A stretch of 32,000 bases of DNA from Promethearchaeota archaeon. Lineage in GTDB: Archaea > Asgardarchaeota > Lokiarchaeia > Sigyniarchaeales > SOKP01. Shown here one piece after another: positions 1 to 23,380 of the stretch. Both the position numbers and the translations under genes were made by a program. The notes beneath the pieces were generated by a model. The model saw nothing but the letters and a program-made list of their open reading frames with translations. It was not told the DNA's origin and made no database searches. Position 1 is the stretch's first letter. Every line of letters starts with the position of its first letter. Where the stretch lies: NCBI GenBank assembly GCA_030606485.1, contig JAUWGH010000008.1, positions 60,001 to 92,000 of the forward strand. Direction: 5' to 3'.

Positions 1-2
1 TC

Positions 3-611
3 AAGAGACAAAAGAGGATAAACATAAAATTATGTTTAATATGTTCAATATTCTCTATTATCGGAAGTTTAATCTCTACGATTTTATTTATCATATATCC
101 AATAGATAATTATCTATTGAGGTTGATTTTTGCGTGTGTAATGATATATGTATCAATTAATTTAATATTCAGAAAAGATCCAGCAAATAAAAATAAAAAC
201 TCAAATGAAAGTGAAAATACAAGCGAGAGTTTTTCCCTAGAGTTTAAAAATCATAAAAATTTTTTTAAAAAAGGGATACCCTTATTTATTTTGGCAGGAT
301 TTCTTGCAAATTTATTGGGAATTGGAGGAGGAATTGTTAATACACCAACTTTACATTATATATTTCAATTTCCAATTTATTATGCAACTGCAAATTCAAC
401 AGGAATTATCTTTTTTACTGCAATTTATAATGTAATAGTTAAATCAATGTTGGGAAAGGTTGATTTCATCATGGGAATTCTAATGGGGTCGGGAGGTCTA
501 ATTGGTGCATATTTTGGTGCAAAAATATCTCAAAAAATATCTCGTAAAAACCTTACAATAATATTAGCAATTGTCCTTTTAATGGGCTCAATAAGAATGT
601 TTTTTCCTTAG
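3..611 (+). CDS. Sulfite exporter TauE/SafE family membrane protein (5' partial)
   Basis: The frame of ORF 117..611 stays open to the window edge (KRQKRINIKLCLICSIFSIIGSLISTILF...), so the true start is upstream. Motifs LAGFLANLLGIGGGIVNTP and A.A.S...IFFTA, GGLIGAYFGAKI are typical of TauE/DUF81. Confidence 0.85.
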   Translation, partial: KRQKRINIKLCLICSIFSIIGSLISTILFIIYPIDNYLLRLIFACVMIYVSINLIFRKDPANKNKNSNESENTSESFSLEFKNHKNFFKKGIPLFILAGFLANLLGIGGGIVNTPTLHYIFQFPIYYATANSTGIIFFTAIYNVIVKSMLGKVDFIMGILMGSGGLIGAYFGAKISQKISRKNLTIILAIVLLMGSIRMFFP

Positions 612-693
612 GAATAGAGTTTTCTATATGAATACCATAAAGTACTAATAATATCATAGTTTAATTTCTAATTAAATATAAAAAGTGATTTAA

Positions 694-1524
694 ATGTCCC
701 GCAGGATTGATTTATTAAGACTTGATTACACTTTTTCGGTCATTGTTCCCCTTCTTATCGCAATTTTTATCAATAATTACCTAATTTGGAACCATATCGA
801 TATTATCGTAGGATTTGTAATGTTCGCAATTACGGGTAATACTTGGAATGATGTAGTGGATATGAGAGATCCCAATGAAATAGAGACACTTGAAAGAGTT
901 GAGGGGTATCATTGGAAGGAAATATTTACAATAGGTTTGGTTACATTTGTTATGGGCTTGACATTATTATTAAGGACATGTTTTGAAAAATGGGTCAATG
1001 GAATCCTTCTCATCGTAATAATCACCTTGGTTTTATTATACTGTGTAAAATATAAATCAGTTCCAATATTGAATCACATCTTACTCGGAGCTTCTCACAT
1101 CATATTACCATATTTTATGATAAAAATAGACCATATTGGAATTCCCTTAACCGAACCCCTTATGGGTGATTTTGAATGGTTTTTAATGTTTGCATTCTTT
1201 ACTTTCGCAATAACAGGTCAATTTGTTCATGAGGCAATAGATGGGGATAGTATTACCAGATTTTCTTTAAAAACTCAACAGAAAATAATATGGGTTTCAT
1301 CAATTCTTACACTTATAATAGCAGTCTGTACATTCATTGTTTATCCAATAATCTACTTTTTACCATTTATTCTTTTCCCAATCGGAACTATGTATACATT
1401 TAGACGCCCTACAAAATCCACAAGGGGTGTAAAAGATGTCGGGATATTAATGGGAAATTTCCTTCTTGTTTATTTCATTACCCTAATTATTATGCAAATG
1501 AATGGATTTGTTATTCTTCCCTAA
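694..1524 (+). CDS. UbiA-family prenyltransferase, divergent
   Basis: Polytopic membrane protein with the first Asp-rich motif GNTWNDVVDMRD and a degenerate second motif HEAIDGD. Confidence 0.7.
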   Translation: MSRRIDLLRLDYTFSVIVPLLIAIFINNYLIWNHIDIIVGFVMFAITGNTWNDVVDMRDPNEIETLERVEGYHWKEIFTIGLVTFVMGLTLLLRTCFEKWVNGILLIVIITLVLLYCVKYKSVPILNHILLGASHIILPYFMIKIDHIGIPLTEPLMGDFEWFLMFAFFTFAITGQFVHEAIDGDSITRFSLKTQQKIIWVSSILTLIIAVCTFIVYPIIYFLPFILFPIGTMYTFRRPTKSTRGVKDVGILMGNFLLVYFITLIIMQMNGFVILP

Positions 1525-13243: not shown

Positions 13244-14266
13244 TTATTTAAGGTAATCTAATGTTTCACCTAGGGCAAGCCTACATAAATCACTTAATAG
13301 ATATAATTTCAAGCCATTTCTCTCAGCTAATGAGCCAATCATATTTTTACACATGGGGCAATTAAATACACAAGCTTCTGCTCCATAATCTACCATATCT
13401 TGGACATTTTTCTTTTGAGTTTCTCTACGTAATTTTTTCTTGTCTGGTATCGCCTCCATGCCGCCTCCACAACATAAAGCGTTTTCTCTATCGTATTTTC
13501 TTGCAACCCTCTCAACACCAATTAATTCGCATATTTTATCAACCCATTGATCGGTTTCAGGTATGAATCTATTTGAACAATTACGTAGGTAAGCAATTTT
13601 CATATTTAATTTATTTATTTCTGACTCATGATCCTTAAGATAATTATAGAGATATTCAAAAAGATGAATTGCTTTAAATGGTACTTCAATACCATTTCTT
13701 GGACAATACGATACAAAAAACCCATAACATTCATCATGCCAACAAATTAATTCTTTTACTCCGTGTCTTTTGAAATTATTAATAATAAGAGGAGCTCTCT
13801 CTTTAACTACGGAATCTCTTGCCATATGATGAAACATTAAATTACAGAAAAAGTCAGTACCGCTTAAGTATTGAAGATTATCGAACATTTGCCCTTGCAT
13901 CTCGTTTTTACTCATATTCCTAAAGGTACATTTGTCTAAAACTGGCTTCTCTGGGTCTATTTCTTTCATTCTTAATTCAGAGTGAGGAGCATATTGATTT
14001 ACTCCCCTTTCAATCATAGCGAGAGGTATATTCAATGAATTATATTTTTCTTGCAATTCTACAATCCTATCAAATGGTCTTGCGTTTAATTCACAGTATT
14101 CTTGACACGCAAAACATGTTATACATTCACTTAAAATACGTGAATTCTCTCCATTAACCATTTTCATGATCTCAACTTTTGCGTCTTCCTTACTTATATC
14201 AATATATTGACATTTAATTAAACAGCTCTGTGTATCACAACTTTCACATTTATCTCCTTCTAACAT
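13244..14266 (-). CDS. Fe-S-binding CCG-domain protein (HdrB/GlpC-like) with N-terminal 4Fe-4S motifs
   Basis: CESCDTQSCLIKC and CITCFACQEYC at the N-terminus. C-terminal CCG set: RNC...LCCGG...FNCPMC. Confidence 0.85.
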   Translation of the reverse strand: MLEGDKCESCDTQSCLIKCQYIDISKEDAKVEIMKMVNGENSRILSECITCFACQEYCELNARPFDRIVELQEKYNSLNIPLAMIERGVNQYAPHSELRMKEIDPEKPVLDKCTFRNMSKNEMQGQMFDNLQYLSGTDFFCNLMFHHMARDSVVKERAPLIINNFKRHGVKELICWHDECYGFFVSYCPRNGIEVPFKAIHLFEYLYNYLKDHESEINKLNMKIAYLRNCSNRFIPETDQWVDKICELIGVERVARKYDRENALCCGGGMEAIPDKKKLRRETQKKNVQDMVDYGAEACVFNCPMCKNMIGSLAERNGLKLYLLSDLCRLALGETLDYLK

Positions 14267-16123: not shown

Positions 16124-17611
16124 ATGAATGCTAATCAATATGAAAAAACTCCAATTAAATTTGTAATGATAATTCCAAGTTTCTTCAATATTGATGAAGA
16201 TTATCAAAAACCAATTTATTATTATAATTTTCCTCTCGGACCATTGCAAATAATCGCTTTATTATTGAAGAGGAAATTAATAAAAGAAAAGATGCCAATG
16301 ATTATTGACATCCGACGCGAAGAAGAATTAAATCCTGATGGATATAAAATCTCCGAATATAAAAAAGAAGAATTTGAAAAGTTTTTCAATAAAATTATAA
16401 GTAAATATGGACTTCTTGAATATGATTTAATTGCACTAAGTTGCTATACTTCTGCCGCATATTTACAAACAAGATTGATAGCCTCTATTTTAAAGGAACT
16501 AAAACCAGGCATCAAAATAATTGTTGGTGGATATCATCCTTCTGCAGTTCCAAATGATTTTTTATTCCAAAATTCACCGTTTGATTTTGTAATAAGAGGT
16601 GAAGGAGAAAGATTTTTTTTAGATTTATTAAGGAATGGTAATATAATTAAAACTCCAAAGACGAGAGTTGTAATACCTGAACCAATAGACCTTAACTCCT
16701 TGCCATTCCCAGACTATCTTGGATATTTAGATATATATCCCGATTTTAGCTCAAAAATGAATTTTGAACTTTTTGTATCAAGAGGTTGTCCTGGAAATTG
16801 TTATTTCTGTGGTAGTAATTTTAGATTTAGAAATTTAGAATATATTAAAGCAAAATTGTTTTTTACGGAACTATATAATATTGCTCAAAAAAATGATGTA
16901 AAAAGATTTAATTTCTCAGATCAATGTTTTAATGCGCTAAAGTATAAATATAAATGGCTTGAATTAATAAAAAAGAACAAATTAAATGAGGATATGGAGT
17001 TCTCTTGTCAAGCAAGAATCGATTACTTTAGTAAAAAGATGTTAAAAAAATTTCAGGAAGCAAATATGGTTGTAGGATATGGACTTGAGTCTATTTCCAA
17101 AGAAATGTTGGTTGGAATGAATAAAATATCCATAAAAGATGTTAATTCTTATATAAAAAAAACTCATGAGATAATTGAATTTTACAAACAGCACGCTAAG
17201 GTAAGATGTAGATTGAATTTATTAATAGGTTATCCAGGAGAGACGAGAGAGACATTTTTTGAAACTGTGAATTATATAAATAATGATTCAATTCATAGTT
17301 TGATTGATATGGGGCCAACGCTTTATTCAATATACCCAAACTCATTTGTATATCAACATAAAGATGAATATGTTCAAAATTATGGAATTGAATTTATAGA
17401 TGAATATTGGAAAATTAAAGATTTGAACCCATTAAAGAGTTCAGTGATAAGACCTTCAAGAGATTACTCTAAAGAAGATATGATCCTAGATTATTTCACT
17501 GAATATAATAAAATTCTATATTTAAATGAGAGAGGGGGTAAGTTACTTAATAAAATTCAAAATCAAAAATGGAGAACTTTCTTTAAATCATGGTGTGATG
17601 AACTTCATTAA
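16124..17611 (+). CDS. Cobalamin-binding radical SAM protein (class B-like)
   Basis: B12-binding segment (LSCYT, IIVGGYHPS, DFVIRGEGE) followed by SRGCPGNCYFC, GLES and LLIGYPGET. Confidence 0.9.
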   Translation: MNANQYEKTPIKFVMIIPSFFNIDEDYQKPIYYYNFPLGPLQIIALLLKRKLIKEKMPMIIDIRREEELNPDGYKISEYKKEEFEKFFNKIISKYGLLEYDLIALSCYTSAAYLQTRLIASILKELKPGIKIIVGGYHPSAVPNDFLFQNSPFDFVIRGEGERFFLDLLRNGNIIKTPKTRVVIPEPIDLNSLPFPDYLGYLDIYPDFSSKMNFELFVSRGCPGNCYFCGSNFRFRNLEYIKAKLFFTELYNIAQKNDVKRFNFSDQCFNALKYKYKWLELIKKNKLNEDMEFSCQARIDYFSKKMLKKFQEANMVVGYGLESISKEMLVGMNKISIKDVNSYIKKTHEIIEFYKQHAKVRCRLNLLIGYPGETRETFFETVNYINNDSIHSLIDMGPTLYSIYPNSFVYQHKDEYVQNYGIEFIDEYWKIKDLNPLKSSVIRPSRDYSKEDMILDYFTEYNKILYLNERGGKLLNKIQNQKWRTFFKSWCDELH

Positions 17612-17831
17612 ATTTGTAAGGGTAAAATAAAATATTCTTGGATTTCAATCTTCAAGGTAATTCTATAATTCATTTTATTTATTCAATAAAAGCAGTTAGA
17701 TGGTTATAGAAAATAATAATAAACATTAAAAATTGAAAATTCATTTACAATATTGATTAACACAAATAATGCATATCAGTAAATAAACTCCTCAAATTTA
17801 ATCAAAATTAAAAGCAAAATAGTTATTTAAA

Positions 17832-20597
17832 ATGAAAGCAAAAGAGGAAATTTCATCAGAAAGAAGTTTAAAAATTGAAAGTAAAGATCTTGAAAGAATT
17901 GCAGAATTAGTTAAATCCGCAAATTATTGTTATGATTGCAATCGTTGTGTAAATGTGTGTCCAGTTTCTATATATGGACTTTTTTATCCAAGACAACTCG
18001 TTAGCGACTTTGCAAATTTTTCAATTGAAGAAACAATTAATAATTCTAATATTTGGAGTTGTTTAACTTGTGGACAATGTATCGAATACTGTCCAATGTC
18101 TAAAGAAAATATCGGAGTAAATTTTTTTGATATTATTTTGAATCTTCGGAAGATCGCTACGGAATCAGAAAAATTGAAAGAGGAGAAATTGGAATATACA
18201 ACACATGGTAGGTTATATGCAAATTTACCTTATTTAATGGCAAATAATCAAATAGAATTCGAGAACAAACTTGGCTATTTGGATGATACAAATTTAAAAA
18301 TTGCTGATAAGGGAGATATTGCATATTTCGTTGGTTGTATTCCATATATTGATAAAATATCTCCATGTAGAAGAGCGTGTCCAGCAGGTGTAGACATACA
18401 AGGTTATATCTCATTTATTAGAGAAGGAAAATTTCAAGAGTCACTTGATTTAATAAGAAAAAGGATTCCCTTTCCAGGGGTATGTGGTCGAATATGCCCT
18501 GCTCTTTGTGAAGATGTTTGTAATCGTGGGACTATAGATAAACCCGTTGCTATTAAAGCATTAAAAAGATTTGTTGCTGACTGGGAAATAAAAAATGCCC
18601 CTTTAAAGAATATTACACCAACTAAACAAACTAAAGAAAAGGTAGCAATTATTGGTTCAGGACCATCTGGTATGTCCGCAGCATATTATCTAGCAAAAAA
18701 GGGATATAAACCAACAGTATTTGAAGCATCACCATTTAAAGGTGGAATGTTAAGATTTGGTGTTCCAGAATACCGTTTGCCCCAAAGAATCTTAGATTAT
18801 GAAATTGAATATATTGAGAAGAGCGGTGTTGAAATTAAAACAAATACACCAATAGGACCAAAACTAACGTTTAAAGATTTAAAAAAAATGGGCTATGAAG
18901 CTATTTTTATTTCAATAGGACTTCAACATAGCAGAAGAATGAGTATAGAGGGAGATGATCTTAAAAATGTTATCGGAGGTATAGAATATCTTAAAAATTA
19001 TAAATTATCAGATAAAACCTCAAAAAAATTTGAAGTAAAAGTTAAAGATAAAATAGTTGGAGTTGTAGGTGGCGGAAATGTTGCTATGGATGCTGCAAGA
19101 ACATCTGTAAGATTAGGTGCAAAACAAGTAATCATAATTTATCGACGATCAGAAAAAGAAATGCCCGCATCAAAAGAAGAGATTGAGATGGCAAAAGAAG
19201 AAAATATTGAATTTCAATTTTTAACTAATCCAGTAAGAATTTTAGGGGATAAAAATAGTAATATTTCTGAAGTTGAATGCATCCGGATGAAACTTGGAGA
19301 ACCAGATAGTTCAGGTAGAAGAAGACCGATTCCTATTGAAGGTTCTGAAATCAAAATGAAAGTTAATGTTTTAATACTTGGAATAGGTCAGGCAGCTGAC
19401 CATGAACCTGTATTAGCTGCTGAACATAAATTAGCAATTGATAAAAGAGGTAGTATTCAAACTGATAAATTAATTTTAGAAACAAATATTCCTGGTGTTT
19501 TTGCTGGAGGAGATATAATAGGTGGTGAGGGAATAGTCATTAGAGCAATAGCGAATGGATATGAAGCAGCAATTTCAATTGATCGATATATCAGAGGTGT
19601 CGACCTAGAAGAAGATAGGTTCTTTAGAGAAGATTTAAGACCTGCTGCAATACCTAAAAAACAAATTGAAGTCACCCAAAGAAGAGAGATGCCAATAATT
19701 CCCGTAGAAGAAAGGATAAAATCTTTTAATGAATGTGAAATTGGACTTTCGGAAGAAGACGCAATTCAAGAAGCTCATAGATGTGTTTTATGTAATATGT
19801 GTTCTAATTGTGATTTACCTCATGAATTATTACAAGAAACAATTGAAAAAGGGCAAAAATTTAAATGTGTATATGGAAAACAATCTTTTTACGATTCTGC
19901 TGATAAAATAGATTATTTAAGAGTTCCAAAAACTGCAATAGGTATTTTAAATCAAAATGGAATAATTCCTGTAGTTTTAGAGGATGAAAAATGTTGTGGG
20001 CATGATAACTATTGGACAGGAGATATGGATACTTTTGAAAAACTTGCAAAATATAATATCCAATTGTTCAAAAATGCCGGAGTTAAAACAATAATTTGTA
20101 ATTGCGCAGAAGGATATTACATGTGGAAATTTGTATATAAAGATCTTCTTGAAGATAACAATGATTTTAATTTTGAAGTATATCATATTAGTGAATATAT
20201 CCAAAAAGAAGGATTATTAGATAATTTAAAACTCCCTAATTCTGATAAAATTTTAGTTACTTACCATGATCCTTGTAGACTTGGCAGAATGAGTAAAGTA
20301 TATGATGCTCCCCGTGAAATATTGAATAAAATTCCATTTGTCGAATTAATAGAAATGAAAAATAATAAAGAGGATGCTCTTTGTTGTGGTGTCGCTGCTA
20401 ATTTGTCTTGTAATATTTACTCAAAAATGATTCAAGGCGATAGAATTAATCAAGCTATTGAAACTGGAGCAAAATATATGATTCTTAATTGCCCAAAATG
20501 TTTAACTCACTTTAATTGCTATTTACATGAAAATCCAGCAATAGATCTTAAAGTTATGTGTTTAATCACTTTCCTTGGTATGTTATACCGTTATTAA
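17832..20597 (+). CDS. HdrD-like (2x4Fe-4S + 2 CCG) oxidoreductase with an inserted GltD/NfnB-like FAD/NAD(P)H module
   Basis: N-terminal CYDCNRCVNVCP and CLTCGQCIEYCP, then YFVGC. Insert: SPCRRACP, CGRICPALCEDVC, GSGPSG, GGGNVAMD, YRRS, GVFAGGD, EAHRCVLC. After the insert: EKCCGHD, HDPCRLGR, LCCG, NCPKC. Confidence 0.88.
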   Translation: MKAKEEISSERSLKIESKDLERIAELVKSANYCYDCNRCVNVCPVSIYGLFYPRQLVSDFANFSIEETINNSNIWSCLTCGQCIEYCPMSKENIGVNFFDIILNLRKIATESEKLKEEKLEYTTHGRLYANLPYLMANNQIEFENKLGYLDDTNLKIADKGDIAYFVGCIPYIDKISPCRRACPAGVDIQGYISFIREGKFQESLDLIRKRIPFPGVCGRICPALCEDVCNRGTIDKPVAIKALKRFVADWEIKNAPLKNITPTKQTKEKVAIIGSGPSGMSAAYYLAKKGYKPTVFEASPFKGGMLRFGVPEYRLPQRILDYEIEYIEKSGVEIKTNTPIGPKLTFKDLKKMGYEAIFISIGLQHSRRMSIEGDDLKNVIGGIEYLKNYKLSDKTSKKFEVKVKDKIVGVVGGGNVAMDAARTSVRLGAKQVIIIYRRSEKEMPASKEEIEMAKEENIEFQFLTNPVRILGDKNSNISEVECIRMKLGEPDSSGRRRPIPIEGSEIKMKVNVLILGIGQAADHEPVLAAEHKLAIDKRGSIQTDKLILETNIPGVFAGGDIIGGEGIVIRAIANGYEAAISIDRYIRGVDLEEDRFFREDLRPAAIPKKQIEVTQRREMPIIPVEERIKSFNECEIGLSEEDAIQEAHRCVLCNMCSNCDLPHELLQETIEKGQKFKCVYGKQSFYDSADKIDYLRVPKTAIGILNQNGIIPVVLEDEKCCGHDNYWTGDMDTFEKLAKYNIQLFKNAGVKTIICNCAEGYYMWKFVYKDLLEDNNDFNFEVYHISEYIQKEGLLDNLKLPNSDKILVTYHDPCRLGRMSKVYDAPREILNKIPFVELIEMKNNKEDALCCGVAANLSCNIYSKMIQGDRINQAIETGAKYMILNCPKCLTHFNCYLHENPAIDLKVMCLITFLGMLYRY
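18350..19910 (+). repeat. 10-bp in-frame direct repeat TGATAAAATA at both junctions of the GltD-like insert
   Basis: TGATAAAATA at 18350-18359 and 19901-19910, both encoding DKI in frame, 1551 nt apart. Confidence 0.6.
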
Positions 20598-20839
20598 TTA
20601 TTTCTCTATTTTCCTTTCTTAATATTTCCTATTAATCAATAATTTGCAAGGAAAAACCTTTTTTTACCATATAATTAACAAATTAGTCTTTTGTAAAAAT
20701 TAATTTAATTTAATAATGATTAACAATAAATCTTAATTATTATATATTTCAAATGTAAATTATTATCATACGACATTCTTCTATAGAGAAATGTCTAAGT
20801 TAATAACATTTGTTAAGAACATAAAAAAAGTGTAGAAAT

Positions 20840-22711
20840 ATGACTTTAGAAGGATATACACAAGAAAGAGTTAATATTCATTTAGATACTGGTAAAATTG
20901 AAAAAGGCTCGATTACGGAAGAATTTTGTACCAACTGGATTGGTGGATATGGTTTTGGCGCAAAGGTATTATGGGATGAATTAAAACCTGGAACTGACCC
21001 ATTAAGTCCTGATAATATTTTAGTATGGGCAATTGGACCATATCCCGGAACTTTTCTGCCCACAAGTTCAAAATATGGACTTTTTGCTAAATCGCCCCTT
21101 ACTGGATTGTTCGGATTATCAATATCTTCTGGAAGCATTGCCCAACAAGCAAGAAGAGCCGGTCATAATCTGATTGTATTTTATGGTAAAGCAGAAGAAC
21201 CTGTATATATCATGTTTGATGATGGAGATATCCAAATTCTCCCCTGTAAGGAGATTGATCTATGGGGAAAGGGTGCTTGGACATCTGATGAGATATTGAA
21301 GGAACATTTTCACGATTCAAGACTCTCCGTGGCTGCAATTGGGCCCGCAGGAGAAAAACTTTCCAAGATCGGATGCGTCACAAATGATAGAAACAGACAA
21401 GCAGGAAGAACCGGAATGGGTTGCGTGATGGGGTCAAAAAATCTTAAAGCCTTATGTTTTAGAGGAACAAAAAGCATTAAAGTTGCAGATCCAAAAAAAT
21501 TCTATGTATTAGGAAAAGATTTCGTTAAACGCGCTATTGGAACAGCTACTGCTAAATATAGAGATTATGGTACACCTAGTGGTTTGGCATCATATAACGA
21601 TATGGGAATGCTTGGAAATTATAACTTTAGAGAAGGCTATTTTGATAAAATGGATAAATTCACAGGACAATGGCTTGATGAAAATTTGGTTGTTAAAAAA
21701 GTAGCGTGTAGTCAATGTCCAATTGCATGTGATCATTTAGCAAAGGTTCCTAAGGATCATCCCTTATGGGCAGGAGCAGTTGGAAGTATGGATATCGAAA
21801 ATATATACTCATTAGGGTCAAATTGTGGTCATGATGATTGGTATGCGATAATTAAGGCTATAACGCTTTGTGATGACTTGGGAATGGATACTATTTCAGC
21901 TGGAACAACCGTAGCTTTTGCCATGGAATGTTTTGAAAAAGGAATCATCAAAAAAGAAGATGTTGGATACGATCTATCATTTGGAGATGGAGAAGCAGTA
22001 GTAAAAATGATTGAAGAAATGGGAAATAGAAGTAGCAAAATCGGGGATATCCTTTCCGATGGAAGTCGTGCTGCCGCTAAAAAACTTGGAGGAGATGCAA
22101 TGAAATATTCTATGCAAGTTAAAGGTCTTGAATTCCCGATGTTCGATATTCGTGGTATGTCATGTTTTGCTGTAGGAGCGAGCGTCTCTATAAGAGGAGC
22201 ATGCCACTTACGAAATGGTGCATATGGCTTGGACGCTAAAGGTAAATTCGATCGTTTTACATATGATAAACCATTAGAACGAGGCAAAGCAATTAAAGTT
22301 GTTGAAGATGAATATGGCGTAATCGATTCTCTTATAATCTGTAAATTCACCAGAGGCATTTATGCAGATAAACAGGACCATTGTGATATTTATAAAGCCG
22401 TAACTGGATATGATATGACTCCAAAAAAATTAATGCTTGATGGCGAAGCAATCCATAATTTGGCAAAGTGTTTCAACATTAGAGAAGGTGCAACTAAAGC
22501 GGATGATTACCCACCCGAAAGATTCTTTACTGAAGCACCAACAAGAGGTCCAGCAAAAGGTGTTACACTTAAAAAAGCAGGATATACTAAGGTTTTGGAA
22601 GGATATTATGAAGCAAGGGGTTGGGATAAGGAAGGAGTTCCTACTGATGAAACACTAAAACGATTGGGGTTAGATTTTGTAATTGGAAAACTCAAAGGAG
22701 GTAAAAAATAA
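20840..22711 (+). CDS. aor: Tungsten-containing aldehyde:ferredoxin oxidoreductase family, large subunit
   Basis: KSPLTG, AIGPAGE, AGRTGMGCVMGSKNLKA, CSQCPIAC, DDLGMDTIS, RGACH, DS..ICKF and YYEARGWD..GVP. Confidence 0.93.
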   Translation: MTLEGYTQERVNIHLDTGKIEKGSITEEFCTNWIGGYGFGAKVLWDELKPGTDPLSPDNILVWAIGPYPGTFLPTSSKYGLFAKSPLTGLFGLSISSGSIAQQARRAGHNLIVFYGKAEEPVYIMFDDGDIQILPCKEIDLWGKGAWTSDEILKEHFHDSRLSVAAIGPAGEKLSKIGCVTNDRNRQAGRTGMGCVMGSKNLKALCFRGTKSIKVADPKKFYVLGKDFVKRAIGTATAKYRDYGTPSGLASYNDMGMLGNYNFREGYFDKMDKFTGQWLDENLVVKKVACSQCPIACDHLAKVPKDHPLWAGAVGSMDIENIYSLGSNCGHDDWYAIIKAITLCDDLGMDTISAGTTVAFAMECFEKGIIKKEDVGYDLSFGDGEAVVKMIEEMGNRSSKIGDILSDGSRAAAKKLGGDAMKYSMQVKGLEFPMFDIRGMSCFAVGASVSIRGACHLRNGAYGLDAKGKFDRFTYDKPLERGKAIKVVEDEYGVIDSLIICKFTRGIYADKQDHCDIYKAVTGYDMTPKKLMLDGEAIHNLAKCFNIREGATKADDYPPERFFTEAPTRGPAKGVTLKKAGYTKVLEGYYEARGWDKEGVPTDETLKRLGLDFVIGKLKGGKK

Positions 22712-23208
22712 TGCCAAGACATGAATTTATTGTTGTTGATCCAGATAAATGTATTGGTTGCGAACTTTGCGAAACCGTTTGTTCATTTGTGCACGATGGA
22801 GAATTCAATCCACTTCATTCCAGAATTAAAAGAGTACGCATCGAACCGTTAATTAACATCGCTTTATCTTGCCAGAAATGCGAAGACCCTGATTGCGTTA
22901 ATGCTTGCCCACAAAAAGCACTGGAAAAGAGTGAAAAAGATGGATCAATTTTAGTTGATGAGGATAAATGCTCTGGCTGTGCTTTTTGTATTCGAGCTTG
23001 TCCTTTTGGAGCAATATCCATGAGTACTGAAACTGGGAAAGTTTTAATTTGTGATTTATGTGAATCTACTGAATATGAAGAGCCACAATGTATAGAGTTT
23101 TGCCCTAGAGAAGCAATTTCCTTAAGAACAGTTGATCAAGTGGGAGATGAAAAACGTATCGATGCAGTTAAGAGACTTTTAACAGAACTACTAGCAGGGT
23201 CAAAATAA
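22711..23208 (+). CDS. 4x[4Fe-4S] electron-transfer subunit (DmsB/CooF-like), partner of AOR
   Basis: Four Cys clusters (CIGCELCETVC, CQKCEDPDCVNACP, CSGCAFCIRACP, CDLC...CIEFCP). TAATG stop/start overlap with aor and a GGAGG RBS. Confidence 0.93.
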   Translation: MPRHEFIVVDPDKCIGCELCETVCSFVHDGEFNPLHSRIKRVRIEPLINIALSCQKCEDPDCVNACPQKALEKSEKDGSILVDEDKCSGCAFCIRACPFGAISMSTETGKVLICDLCESTEYEEPQCIEFCPREAISLRTVDQVGDEKRIDAVKRLLTELLAGSK

Positions 23209-23220
23209 TTTTTTTTTTTT
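23209..23220 (+). terminator. Putative archaeal T-run terminator after the aor-FeS pair
   Basis: T12 immediately follows the TAA at 23206-23208, with further T-rich sequence after it. Confidence 0.55.
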
Positions 23221-23380
23221 CCTTTTATTTTTTTTATTTTGAAATTAATTAGATTTGAATTCTTTTAAATAAAAAAGATCGATATCAAAATCTTTGTTTA
23301 TTATAAATTAAATTTAAAAAAAATTAAATTAAAAGTTATGAATTTTAGAAAAATTTCAAATTATAATTTTTTAGTGAAAT

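Follow-up and report, generated by a model that had tools for sequence, protein, structure and literature searches.

An NfnL/GltD-type cassette inserted into the first CCG domain of an HdrD-like protein of Lokiarchaeia

Asgard archaea possess many Hdr-like proteins and no methanogenesis. We analysed a window of 32,000 nucleotides from a Promethearchaeota archaeon (Lokiarchaeia, Sigyniarchaeales; assembly GCA_030606485.1, contig JAUWGH010000008.1, positions 60,001 to 92,000 of the forward strand), in which one gene at 17832..20597 (window coordinates, as all below) encodes a protein with the features of both an HdrD-type subunit and an NAD(P)H-dependent flavoprotein. We call it the HdrD::NfnL protein (P0001). 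Is the flavoprotein part really placed inside a domain of the HdrD part, how is it built, and what could such a protein do beside the tungsten enzyme encoded downstream? We found that the NfnL/GltD-type cassette is a genuine insertion within a domain, placed directly behind the first Cys of CCG domain 1. Each ingredient is known already (HdrD, the permuted NfnL cassette, cassette insertion into Hdr proteins); the combination, the insertion site and the linkage with a gene for tungsten aldehyde:ferredoxin oxidoreductase (AOR) are new. The original prediction, which was made from the DNA letters and their translations, knew of no described insertion into an HdrD CCG domain, and likewise no published description of a flavoprotein cassette at such a site was found in the open-access literature.

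The split CCG domain

The gene and the domains of its product are as follows.

17832..20597, + strand: whole gene of the HdrD-like protein with inserted NfnL/GltD-type cassette (921 aa, ATG start, frame intact)
17904..18206, + strand: HdrC-like ferredoxin domain, aa 25-125, with two CxxCxxCxxxCP motifs (Pfam Fer4_10/Fer4_8 at 27-89; TIGR03290 HdrC at 31-119)
18309..18359, + strand: part of CCG domain 1 before the insert, aa 160-176, which holds the first beta-strand and, with C169, the first Cys ligand (profile piece ends at aa 176; strand 163-166; HdrB structural alignment from model residue 161)
18360..19898, + strand: inserted cassette, aa 177-689, a predicted NfnL/GltD-type NAD(P)H-FAD-2x[4Fe-4S] module, circularly permuted as judged by alignment (NF009410 at 169-661; PDB and structural matches)
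18360..18596, + strand: cluster-binding part of the cassette, aa 177-255 (Fer4_20, profile positions 30-111 only; invariant columns)
18639..19598, + strand: FAD and NAD(P)H Rossmann domains, aa 270-589, with GSGPSG, GGGNVAMD, IYRRSEKEMPA and FAGGD (Pyr_redox_2 at 270-575; alignment to NADPH-binding NfnA and NfnB)
19704..19814, + strand: permuted element, aa 625-661, at the cassette's C-terminal end; its homolog in NfnL is the N-terminal 'EAxRCLxC' element (4ylf_B and 5jca_L alignments)
19899..20216, + strand: C-terminal remainder of CCG domain 1, aa 690-795 (profile piece 152-376 begins at aa 690)
20250..20576, + strand: CCG domain 2, aa 807-915, with C815, C851, C852, C887 and C890, plus C860 and C896 (Pfam CCG at 809-894; invariant columns)

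The original prediction had described an HdrC/HdrD-type start, a set of cassette motifs and a second CCG domain. Each motif that it quoted was located in the protein, and a domain scan of the kind that it proposed recovered Fer4, Fer4_20, Pyr_redox_2 and CCG. By Pfam these are a Fer4 dicluster at 27-89, Fer4_20 at 177-255, Pyr_redox_2 at 270-575 and CCG in two stretches; by NCBIfam they are HdrC at 31-119, the PRK12771 'NAD(P)-binding protein' subfamily (NF009410) at 169-661 and TfrB/LdhH/GlpC-type CCG proteins at 698-917. Along the chain the motifs are CxxCxxCxxxCP at C33-P44 and C77-P88, IAYFVGC (163-169), SPCRRACP (177-184), C218/C222/C226/C230, GSGPSG (275-280), GGGNVAMD (413-420), YRRS (436-439), FAGGD (557-561), EAHRCVLC (647-654), CCGHD (721-725) and the second CCG (851-853).

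Cys residues of all parts are invariant among 102 homologs: C33, C36, C39, C43, C77, C80, C83 and C87 in the ferredoxin domain, C179, C183, C218, C222, C226, C230, C651, C654 and C657 in the cassette, and C721, C722 and C758 in CCG1. With CX31-39CCX35-36CXXC taken as the canonical CCG pattern, CCG2 holds the full five-Cys signature (C815, C851/852, C887, C890). Of the final CxxC, CCG1 conserves C758 alone; the place of the second Cys is taken by an invariant G761.

Profile, alignment and model agree on the insertion. A profile hidden Markov model of 384 positions, made from 43 contiguous HdrD-like proteins, matched P0001 in two collinear pieces, profile positions 7-149 on aa 25-176 (120.6 bits) and 152-376 on aa 690-915 (274.5 bits), which leave only two profile positions between them. 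After in-silico excision of aa 175-684 there was a single match over positions 6-376 with 412 bits, so that removal of the cassette rebuilds a contiguous CCG domain, as had been claimed. The spacing from C169 to CC721/722 is then 34-41 residues, depending on the boundary chosen, and overlaps the canonical 31-39. In a MAFFT alignment with eight contiguous HdrD-like paralogs of ~400 aa from the same genome and the HdrD part of a linear fusion (described below), P0001 had one run of its own, aa 175-684, whose flanks pair with the first strand including its Cys and with the rest of CCG1. By these boundaries the insert has ~510-514 aa; the insertion into the first CCG domain stands as predicted, with a length slightly below the 517 aa given for it.

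The AlphaFold2 model of P0001, based on 102 homologs, had a mean pLDDT of 87.5 and a pTM of 0.86, with pLDDT ~94 in the strand 163-166. In a structural search against representatives it aligned with HdrB (8rvu_B) at Z 20.6 and rmsd 2.7 A over 234 residues (model 161..921 on chain 1..270), and with the contiguous HdrD-like protein EtfD (9ojn_A) at Z 24.5 over 358 residues (model 16..921); the cassette region gave Z 40-47. The lengths aligned to HdrB and EtfD amount to nearly the entire HdrD body outside the insert, which means that the model re-forms the CCG domain around the cassette. In this confident model the HdrD body is closed around the cassette and the split CCG is folded as one domain, which answers the structure-prediction check put forward with the original prediction. 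A Foldseek search of the PDB with the whole model returned cassette matches, and the HdrD body was seen only in the wider structural search.

P0001 is like HdrD/HdrBC (PF02754; HdrB in 8rvu/5odc) in the double CxxCxxCxxxCP followed by two CCG domains and in the HdrB-like fold. It differs in a CCG1 that is split by a flavoprotein cassette of ~510 aa and has four conserved Cys only. There is also no HdrE or other membrane partner with the HdrD::NfnL protein, and no transmembrane segment or membrane anchor within it (no 19-aa hydrophobic window above 1.35). The host is not a methanogen, so the heterodisulfide of coenzymes M and B (CoM-S-S-CoB) is an unlikely substrate.

Order and relatives of the cassette

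The closest solved relative of the cassette is NfnA of Thermococcus sibiricus NfnABC (9n5u_A, E 4e-124, ~40% identity), followed in order by Caldicellulosiruptor NfnA, Sporomusa StnC, and then NfnB/NfnL and GltD. The structures of the last group (4ylf_B, 5jca_L, 6s6s_G) match with E 2.5e-103 to 9e-65, the value for NfnB (4ylf_B) being 2.5e-103.

NfnB residues 45-461 align to aa 177-589 of P0001, while residues 13-42 of T. maritima NfnB (4ylf_B) and 11-46 of P. furiosus NfnL (5jca_L) pair with aa 620-655. That is, the N-terminal element of NfnB/NfnL, which ends with 'EAxRCLxC', sits after the Rossmann domains in P0001. P0001 does not have the canonical NfnL/GltD order, with 'EAxRCLxC' ahead of the cluster domain, and its Fer4_20 match covers only profile positions 30-111; NfnA and StnC are collinear with the insert. 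Judging from these alignments, the cassette is NfnL in circularly permuted form, with the order of NfnA/StnC. This circular permutation goes beyond the original prediction, as does the conserved position of the gene beside a tungsten AOR and a polyferredoxin.

The permutation bears on how a module of this size could be accommodated. In NfnL, the Cys pair of the N-terminal element precedes the next pair by four residues, and therefore the two ends of the insert (C179/C183 and C651/C654) should meet at one cluster, which would be one of the cassette's own. With its ends joined in this way the cassette could sit in a loop, with the CCG domain closing around it.

All FAD and NADPH motifs are conserved in P0001 (FAD GxGxxG, NADPH GxGxxA with the Arg pair, GGD). 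The signature GGGNVAMD...IYRRSEKEMPA agrees residue for residue with NADPH-binding NfnA and NfnB; NADPH, which had been proposed from YRR, is also what the YRR/GxGxxA match to NADPH-binding NfnL and NfnA suggests.

NfnA of NfnABC and StnC of StnABC (9n5u, 9bov, 8oh5; PMC12018979, PMC11829005, PMC10482914) share with P0001 the permuted order and the NADPH motifs, and their cassette is likewise flanked by other domains and serves for NADPH entry, its FAD being non-bifurcating. In NfnABC, the FAD of NfnA is a plain NADPH entry point (PMC12018979). On its two sides the NfnA/StnC cassette has a [2Fe-2S] N-domain and a NuoG/Fdh-like scaffold which feeds the BfuBC core, whereas the flanks in P0001 are the HdrD body. 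NfnL/NfnB of NfnSL and GltD have the FAD and NADPH Rossmann domains and the two-cluster N-domain, but they are unpermuted and form subunits of their own that pair with NfnS or GltB; among the window neighbours of the HdrD::NfnL gene no NfnS-type protein (DHODB_Fe-S_bind) was found.

GltD-like cassettes inside HdrA-type proteins, to which the original prediction had referred, are documented, and for such GltD/NfnB insertions a role in NAD(P)H entry has been proposed (PMC12054007, PMC9012536). Type III HdrA (PMC12054007), HdrL and the HdrA-NfnB of anaerobic methanotrophic archaea (ANME-1; PMC9012536) have the same permuted cassette (52-57% identical), also as an internal insertion in an Hdr-system protein, where it presumably brings in NAD(P)H. 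The host of the insertion is different, being the ferredoxin domain of the flavoprotein HdrA there and the CCG domain of an HdrD-type subunit here. No HdrA domain (thioredoxin-reductase-type) was detected in P0001 by Pfam or NCBIfam, and the HdrA-inserted relatives are separate proteins (P0113-P0121). In addition, the same cassette is present at 53-58% identity in open reading frames of ~1,650 aa (C42:15145-16626 in genome G258, and 11 other genomes), which are probably HdrL-type HdrA/cassette/HdrA/MvhD mega-fusions.

Family and origin of the split form

The same architecture was looked for in other genomes, as the original prediction had proposed. A search of 5.8 billion proteins gave >100 full-length clusters of ~900-927 aa with 47-93% identity. 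Where these are annotated at all, they are called 'FAD-dependent oxidoreductase' or 'heterodisulfide reductase-related iron-sulfur binding cluster', and all the named ones come from Asgard metagenome-assembled genomes. GTDB species genomes contained 273 relatives, the best 80 of which were all Asgard records. In an even sample of the phylum (301 genomes), matches with E <= 1e-150 occurred only in the GTDB family of the host, in 52 of 68 genomes (~37-41 of them with the full-length form), and in none of 232 genomes from 29 other families. The submitters of some NCBI records chose the labels Hermod-, Hod-, Odin- or Thorarchaeota, and these labels are not reconciled with the GTDB tally.

No other split form was found when aa 1-200 were compared with 1.84 billion representatives: the sole long N-terminal match was the family itself, and the other long matches were linear fusions only (cassette-HdrD, MvhD-HdrD, polyferredoxin-HdrD). 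The cassette-HdrD fusion of Methanophagales/ANME-1 (P0111, P0112, P0120; named only 'FAD-dependent oxidoreductase') has the same cassette type, the same HdrD subclade, a length of ~920 aa and the CCGHD and CAEG/CAEC motifs in common with P0001. It differs by an N-terminal cassette, an uninterrupted CCG1, only 36-45% identity and no AOR in the neighbourhood, and it is uncharacterised too. Further Methanophagales entries of this linear kind are P0140 and P0182, the loci of the linear form being L002-L005, and P0138, an MvhD::HdrD fusion, belongs to the same subclade.

The genome of the host (3.75 Mb, 100% complete) contains about a dozen contiguous HdrD-like genes, several genes for selenocysteine HdrA (Sec-HdrA) and, with a paralog of 69% identity at C10:151712-154471, two copies of the split form in all. 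The Sec-HdrA genes number at least four, including C12:104348-106252 and C10:156625-158535; such genes have two or three TGA codons in frame and encode an intact HdrA once these are read as U (e.g. L054:6849-8780, + strand). The window also encodes, at 13244-14266 on the - strand, a protein of 340 aa in which a weak ferredoxin motif is combined with just one CCG domain (27.9 bits); it resembles a reduced HdrD-like paralog and is conserved in the closest genomes only.

The junction sequences are conserved family-wide. In a maximum-likelihood tree, the cassettes of the split family formed one group (support 85/88, present in 88% of bootstrap trees) and were separated from the unpermuted FrhB::NfnL cassettes with 100/100; the tree does not settle the branching order among split-family, HdrA-inserted and linear-form cassettes. 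The GC content at third codon positions (GC3) is uniform between host and insert, and a recent horizontal acquisition of the cassette was rejected on this basis. Junctions, tree grouping and GC3 agree, and all fit one old insertion.

Two deep clades exist within the family. Clade A, which includes the window gene, keeps the YRR/EMPA NADPH motif. In clade B (47-51% identity), the cassette lies on a long derived branch and has GGGAVAVD...VDLVDIL in place of GGGNVAMD...IYRRSxxEMPA (alignment columns of P0001 aa 404-450), a change that suggests a switch to NADH or a loss of the nucleotide site.

The tungsten-enzyme neighbours and the possible role

Two genes follow the HdrD::NfnL gene.

20840..22711, + strand: tungsten aldehyde:ferredoxin oxidoreductase family protein (AOR; WorL/AorB-like), 623 aa, conserved neighbour (AFOR_N, AFOR_C; PDB matches)
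22711..23208, + strand: four-cluster polyferredoxin (WorS/AorA-like), 165 aa (Fer4_11; PDB matches)

The AOR matches P. furiosus AOR (1aor) with 3e-105, A. mobile WorL with 9.5e-105 and A. aromaticum AorB (8c0z_A) with 1e-97. An identity as BamB of class II benzoyl-CoA reductase was rejected: 4z3w_A gave only 3e-54 over residues 12-424, against 3e-105 over the full length for 1aor. The polyferredoxin, whose start codon overlaps the AOR stop codon at 22711, is closest to A. mobile WorS (9mqx_E, E 5e-30), the WOR5 small subunit (6x1o_B) and AorA (8c0z_C). Its C-terminal tail is conserved (C-terminal 20 alignment columns). In AorA a C-terminal helix mediates filament formation, and by analogy the Asgard polyferredoxin might polymerise as AorA does.

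We counted neighbours within 8 kb in 79 related loci, of which 50 were well flanked (>=3 kb on both sides). AOR was present in 52 of the 79 and in 41 of the 50, and the polyferredoxin in 47 of the 79. In 34 loci the AOR lay within 500 bp, 24 times directly downstream on the same strand and 10 times divergently upstream. The association of AOR and polyferredoxin was found in both deep clades (47-95% identity), in two gene orientations. Cold-seep runs X19 and X20, which are labelled RNA-Seq but rated by the search tool as probably DNA, have short contigs >=99% identical to the HdrD::NfnL gene, the AOR and the polyferredoxin; no record documented as RNA was among the matches listed for window 17600-23300.

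Sec-HdrA followed by an FrhB-like gene was within 8 kb in 23 of the 79 loci, and 21 of these also had AOR. Eighteen loci contain a pair of NfnS and FrhB::NfnL genes (L013:13726-17278, + strand, and 17 others), in which a PyrK/NfnS-like gene is followed by an unpermuted NfnL fusion of ~907 aa with ferredoxin and FrhB_N/C parts; the pair often adjoins the HdrD::NfnL gene and is possibly an F420- or flavin-linked Nfn variant. In these 18 loci the NfnS gene precedes the FrhB::NfnL gene and not the HdrD::NfnL gene. The genome of the host has two pairs of genes for electron transfer flavoprotein (EtfAB), neither adjacent to the window gene. Other recurrent neighbours (an upstream B12/radical-SAM gene, an SNF2 helicase, Ras-like GTPases and a 287-aa protein) were set aside, being shared by close relatives only or belonging to housekeeping synteny.

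The WorSL/AorAB units of Bacteria are polyferredoxin 'nanowires' capped by an NAD-linked module, either AorC (N type) or the bifurcating WorABC (BF type) (PMC10413684, PMC12318220). The AOR and Fer4 neighbours in the window are closest to WorL/WorS and AorB/AorA, and the bacterial WorSL units are NAD-capped; we therefore slightly favour the reading that the HdrD::NfnL protein is an NAD(P)(H)-linked HdrD-type end module which serves the adjacent AOR and polyferredoxin. P0001 itself is a soluble HdrD-type protein with a predicted HdrC-like cubane pair and two CCG domains that should carry non-cubane [4Fe-4S] clusters. The permuted cassette, ready-made with its predicted NAD(P)H site, FAD and two [4Fe-4S], would have entered it in a single event, at the loop that follows the first Cys ligand of CCG1. 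The predicted wire would pass between NAD(P)H and FAD, the cassette cubanes, the HdrC-like cubanes and non-cubane clusters, and an acceptor or donor, in either direction, and the partner of the CCG site would be a thiol/disulfide or a protein carrier. Such an end module would be functionally analogous to AorC or WorABC of the bacterial WORs. Like AorC of AorABC and WorABC of WorABCSL (PMC10413684, PMC12318220), P0001 adjoins a WorL/AorB-like tungsten enzyme and a WorS/AorA-like polyferredoxin and has a predicted flavin and pyridine-nucleotide site; it differs by predicted extra HdrD-type clusters and by its archaeal origin, the N and BF types being reported from Bacteria only. A complex prediction with the polyferredoxin and aa 17-800 of P0001 (CCG2 left out) scored 0.16 against a mark of 0.32, which is evidence neither way.

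Several observations weigh against this role. No homology of P0001 with AorC or BfuABC was seen, as the PDB matches included no chain of 8c0z or 9mqx other than WorL/WorS. AOR is absent from 9 of the 50 well-flanked loci, and the 69% paralog in the same genome adjoins an FrhB-like gene and Sec-HdrA, not AOR. In the window itself, an AT-rich spacer of 243 bp (20597-20840) separates the HdrD::NfnL gene from AOR, and co-transcription is not evident. CCG1 conserves only four Cys (C169, C721, C722, C758) and not the fifth, and clade B is without the YRR motif. The spacer contains a run of seven T ~60 nt past the stop codon, a possible archaeal terminator.

A less probable reading, which still deserves serious weight, is that the protein is a stand-alone soluble NAD(P)H:disulfide reductase (of a heterodisulfide, polysulfide or persulfide), with the substrate reduced directly at the CCG site and the proximity of AOR due to shared regulation or chance. 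One chain holds all parts for a linear wire from NAD(P)H to CCG, and the ANME-1 linear fusion, with the same cassette and HdrD subclade, has no AOR nearby. The intergenic T-run, the loci without AOR and the second paralog count in the same direction. But adjacency of AOR and polyferredoxin across both clades and in two orientations is hard to ascribe to inertia alone, no thiol cofactor is known for Asgard archaea, and a CCG1 without its fifth Cys does not favour a disulfide site.

We consider it rather unlikely that the HdrD::NfnL protein is the HdrD-like arm of an HdrA-centred, bifurcating or confurcating complex similar to class II benzoyl-CoA reductase. In such a complex of HdrD::NfnL, tungsten AOR, polyferredoxin and Sec-HdrA, the AOR and polyferredoxin would form the low-potential arm (acid/aldehyde ~-580 mV), HdrD::NfnL the high-potential arm to NAD(P)+/NAD(P)H, and Sec-HdrA would hold the bifurcating flavin. 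The set of modules parallels BamBC, BamE(F) and BamD plus an NAD(P)H module (bioRxiv 10.64898/2026.04.10.717634), where the HdrD-like BamD is likewise associated with an AOR-family tungsten enzyme (BamBC) and an HdrA-type subunit. The Sec-HdrA and FrhB-like genes counted above, mostly together with AOR, speak for it, and so do the relatives which hold the same cassette inside HdrA itself. The paralog in the same genome lies 2 kb from Sec-HdrA, and the window gene lies 24 kb, on the same contig, from the 67%-identical best ortholog of that HdrA. Against it, HdrA is not adjacent in the window, the closest solved cassette has a non-bifurcating FAD (PMC12018979), and aldehyde oxidation is already below the ferredoxin potential, so that a need for bifurcation is doubtful. 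BamD also differs in having no flavoprotein insert; ETF genes are not adjacent in the window, and the window AOR is of the bona fide AOR type, nearer to true AORs than to BamB. BamD binds no heterodisulfide and passes high-potential electrons to ETF (bioRxiv 10.64898/2026.04.10.717634). The electron exchange of BamD and EtfD/EMO with ETF means that CCG clusters need not reduce a heterodisulfide. The original prediction is supported in part: its domain insertion stands, while the disulfide chemistry and the possible electron bifurcation that it proposed are conjectural.

An assembly chimera at the junctions, which the original prediction had named as a finding that would overturn it, or a decaying functionless fusion, is refuted and practically negligible, with nothing found in its favour: >100 independent clusters and 79 genome loci share these junctions, the Cys ligands and nucleotide motifs are invariant, the frame is intact, the composition is uniform, and the N-junction is spanned by DNA contigs of two further studies, over 17631-18442 (one mismatch) and 18314-18714. 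Among the matches listed, no contig crossed the C-junction with 31 letters on both sides.

The substrate of Asgard Hdr has been described as 'an unidentified heterodisulfide' (PMC11291895). The HdrD::NfnL protein is a single chain and thus the simplest member of the Hdr set to express and assay, and it could make this question tractable. It also illustrates cleanly the repeated use of a permuted redox cassette as an inserted module, with HdrD joining NfnA/StnC and HdrA as hosts. If the HdrA-centred complex were true, it would couple acid/aldehyde, NAD(P)(H) and ferredoxin in an archaeal machine and add a new type of 'plug' for WorSL nanowires, and syntrophic Lokiarchaeia could re-oxidise NAD(P)H to the ferredoxin level by way of aldehyde oxidation. 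As an end module, which we favour, its pairing with a WorL/WorS-type tungsten enzyme would be the archaeal counterpart of the NAD-linked 'plugs' reported only from bacteria (PMC12318220). The HdrD::NfnL protein may thus represent a new connection of NAD(P)H to the chemistry of Hdr-type and tungsten enzymes.

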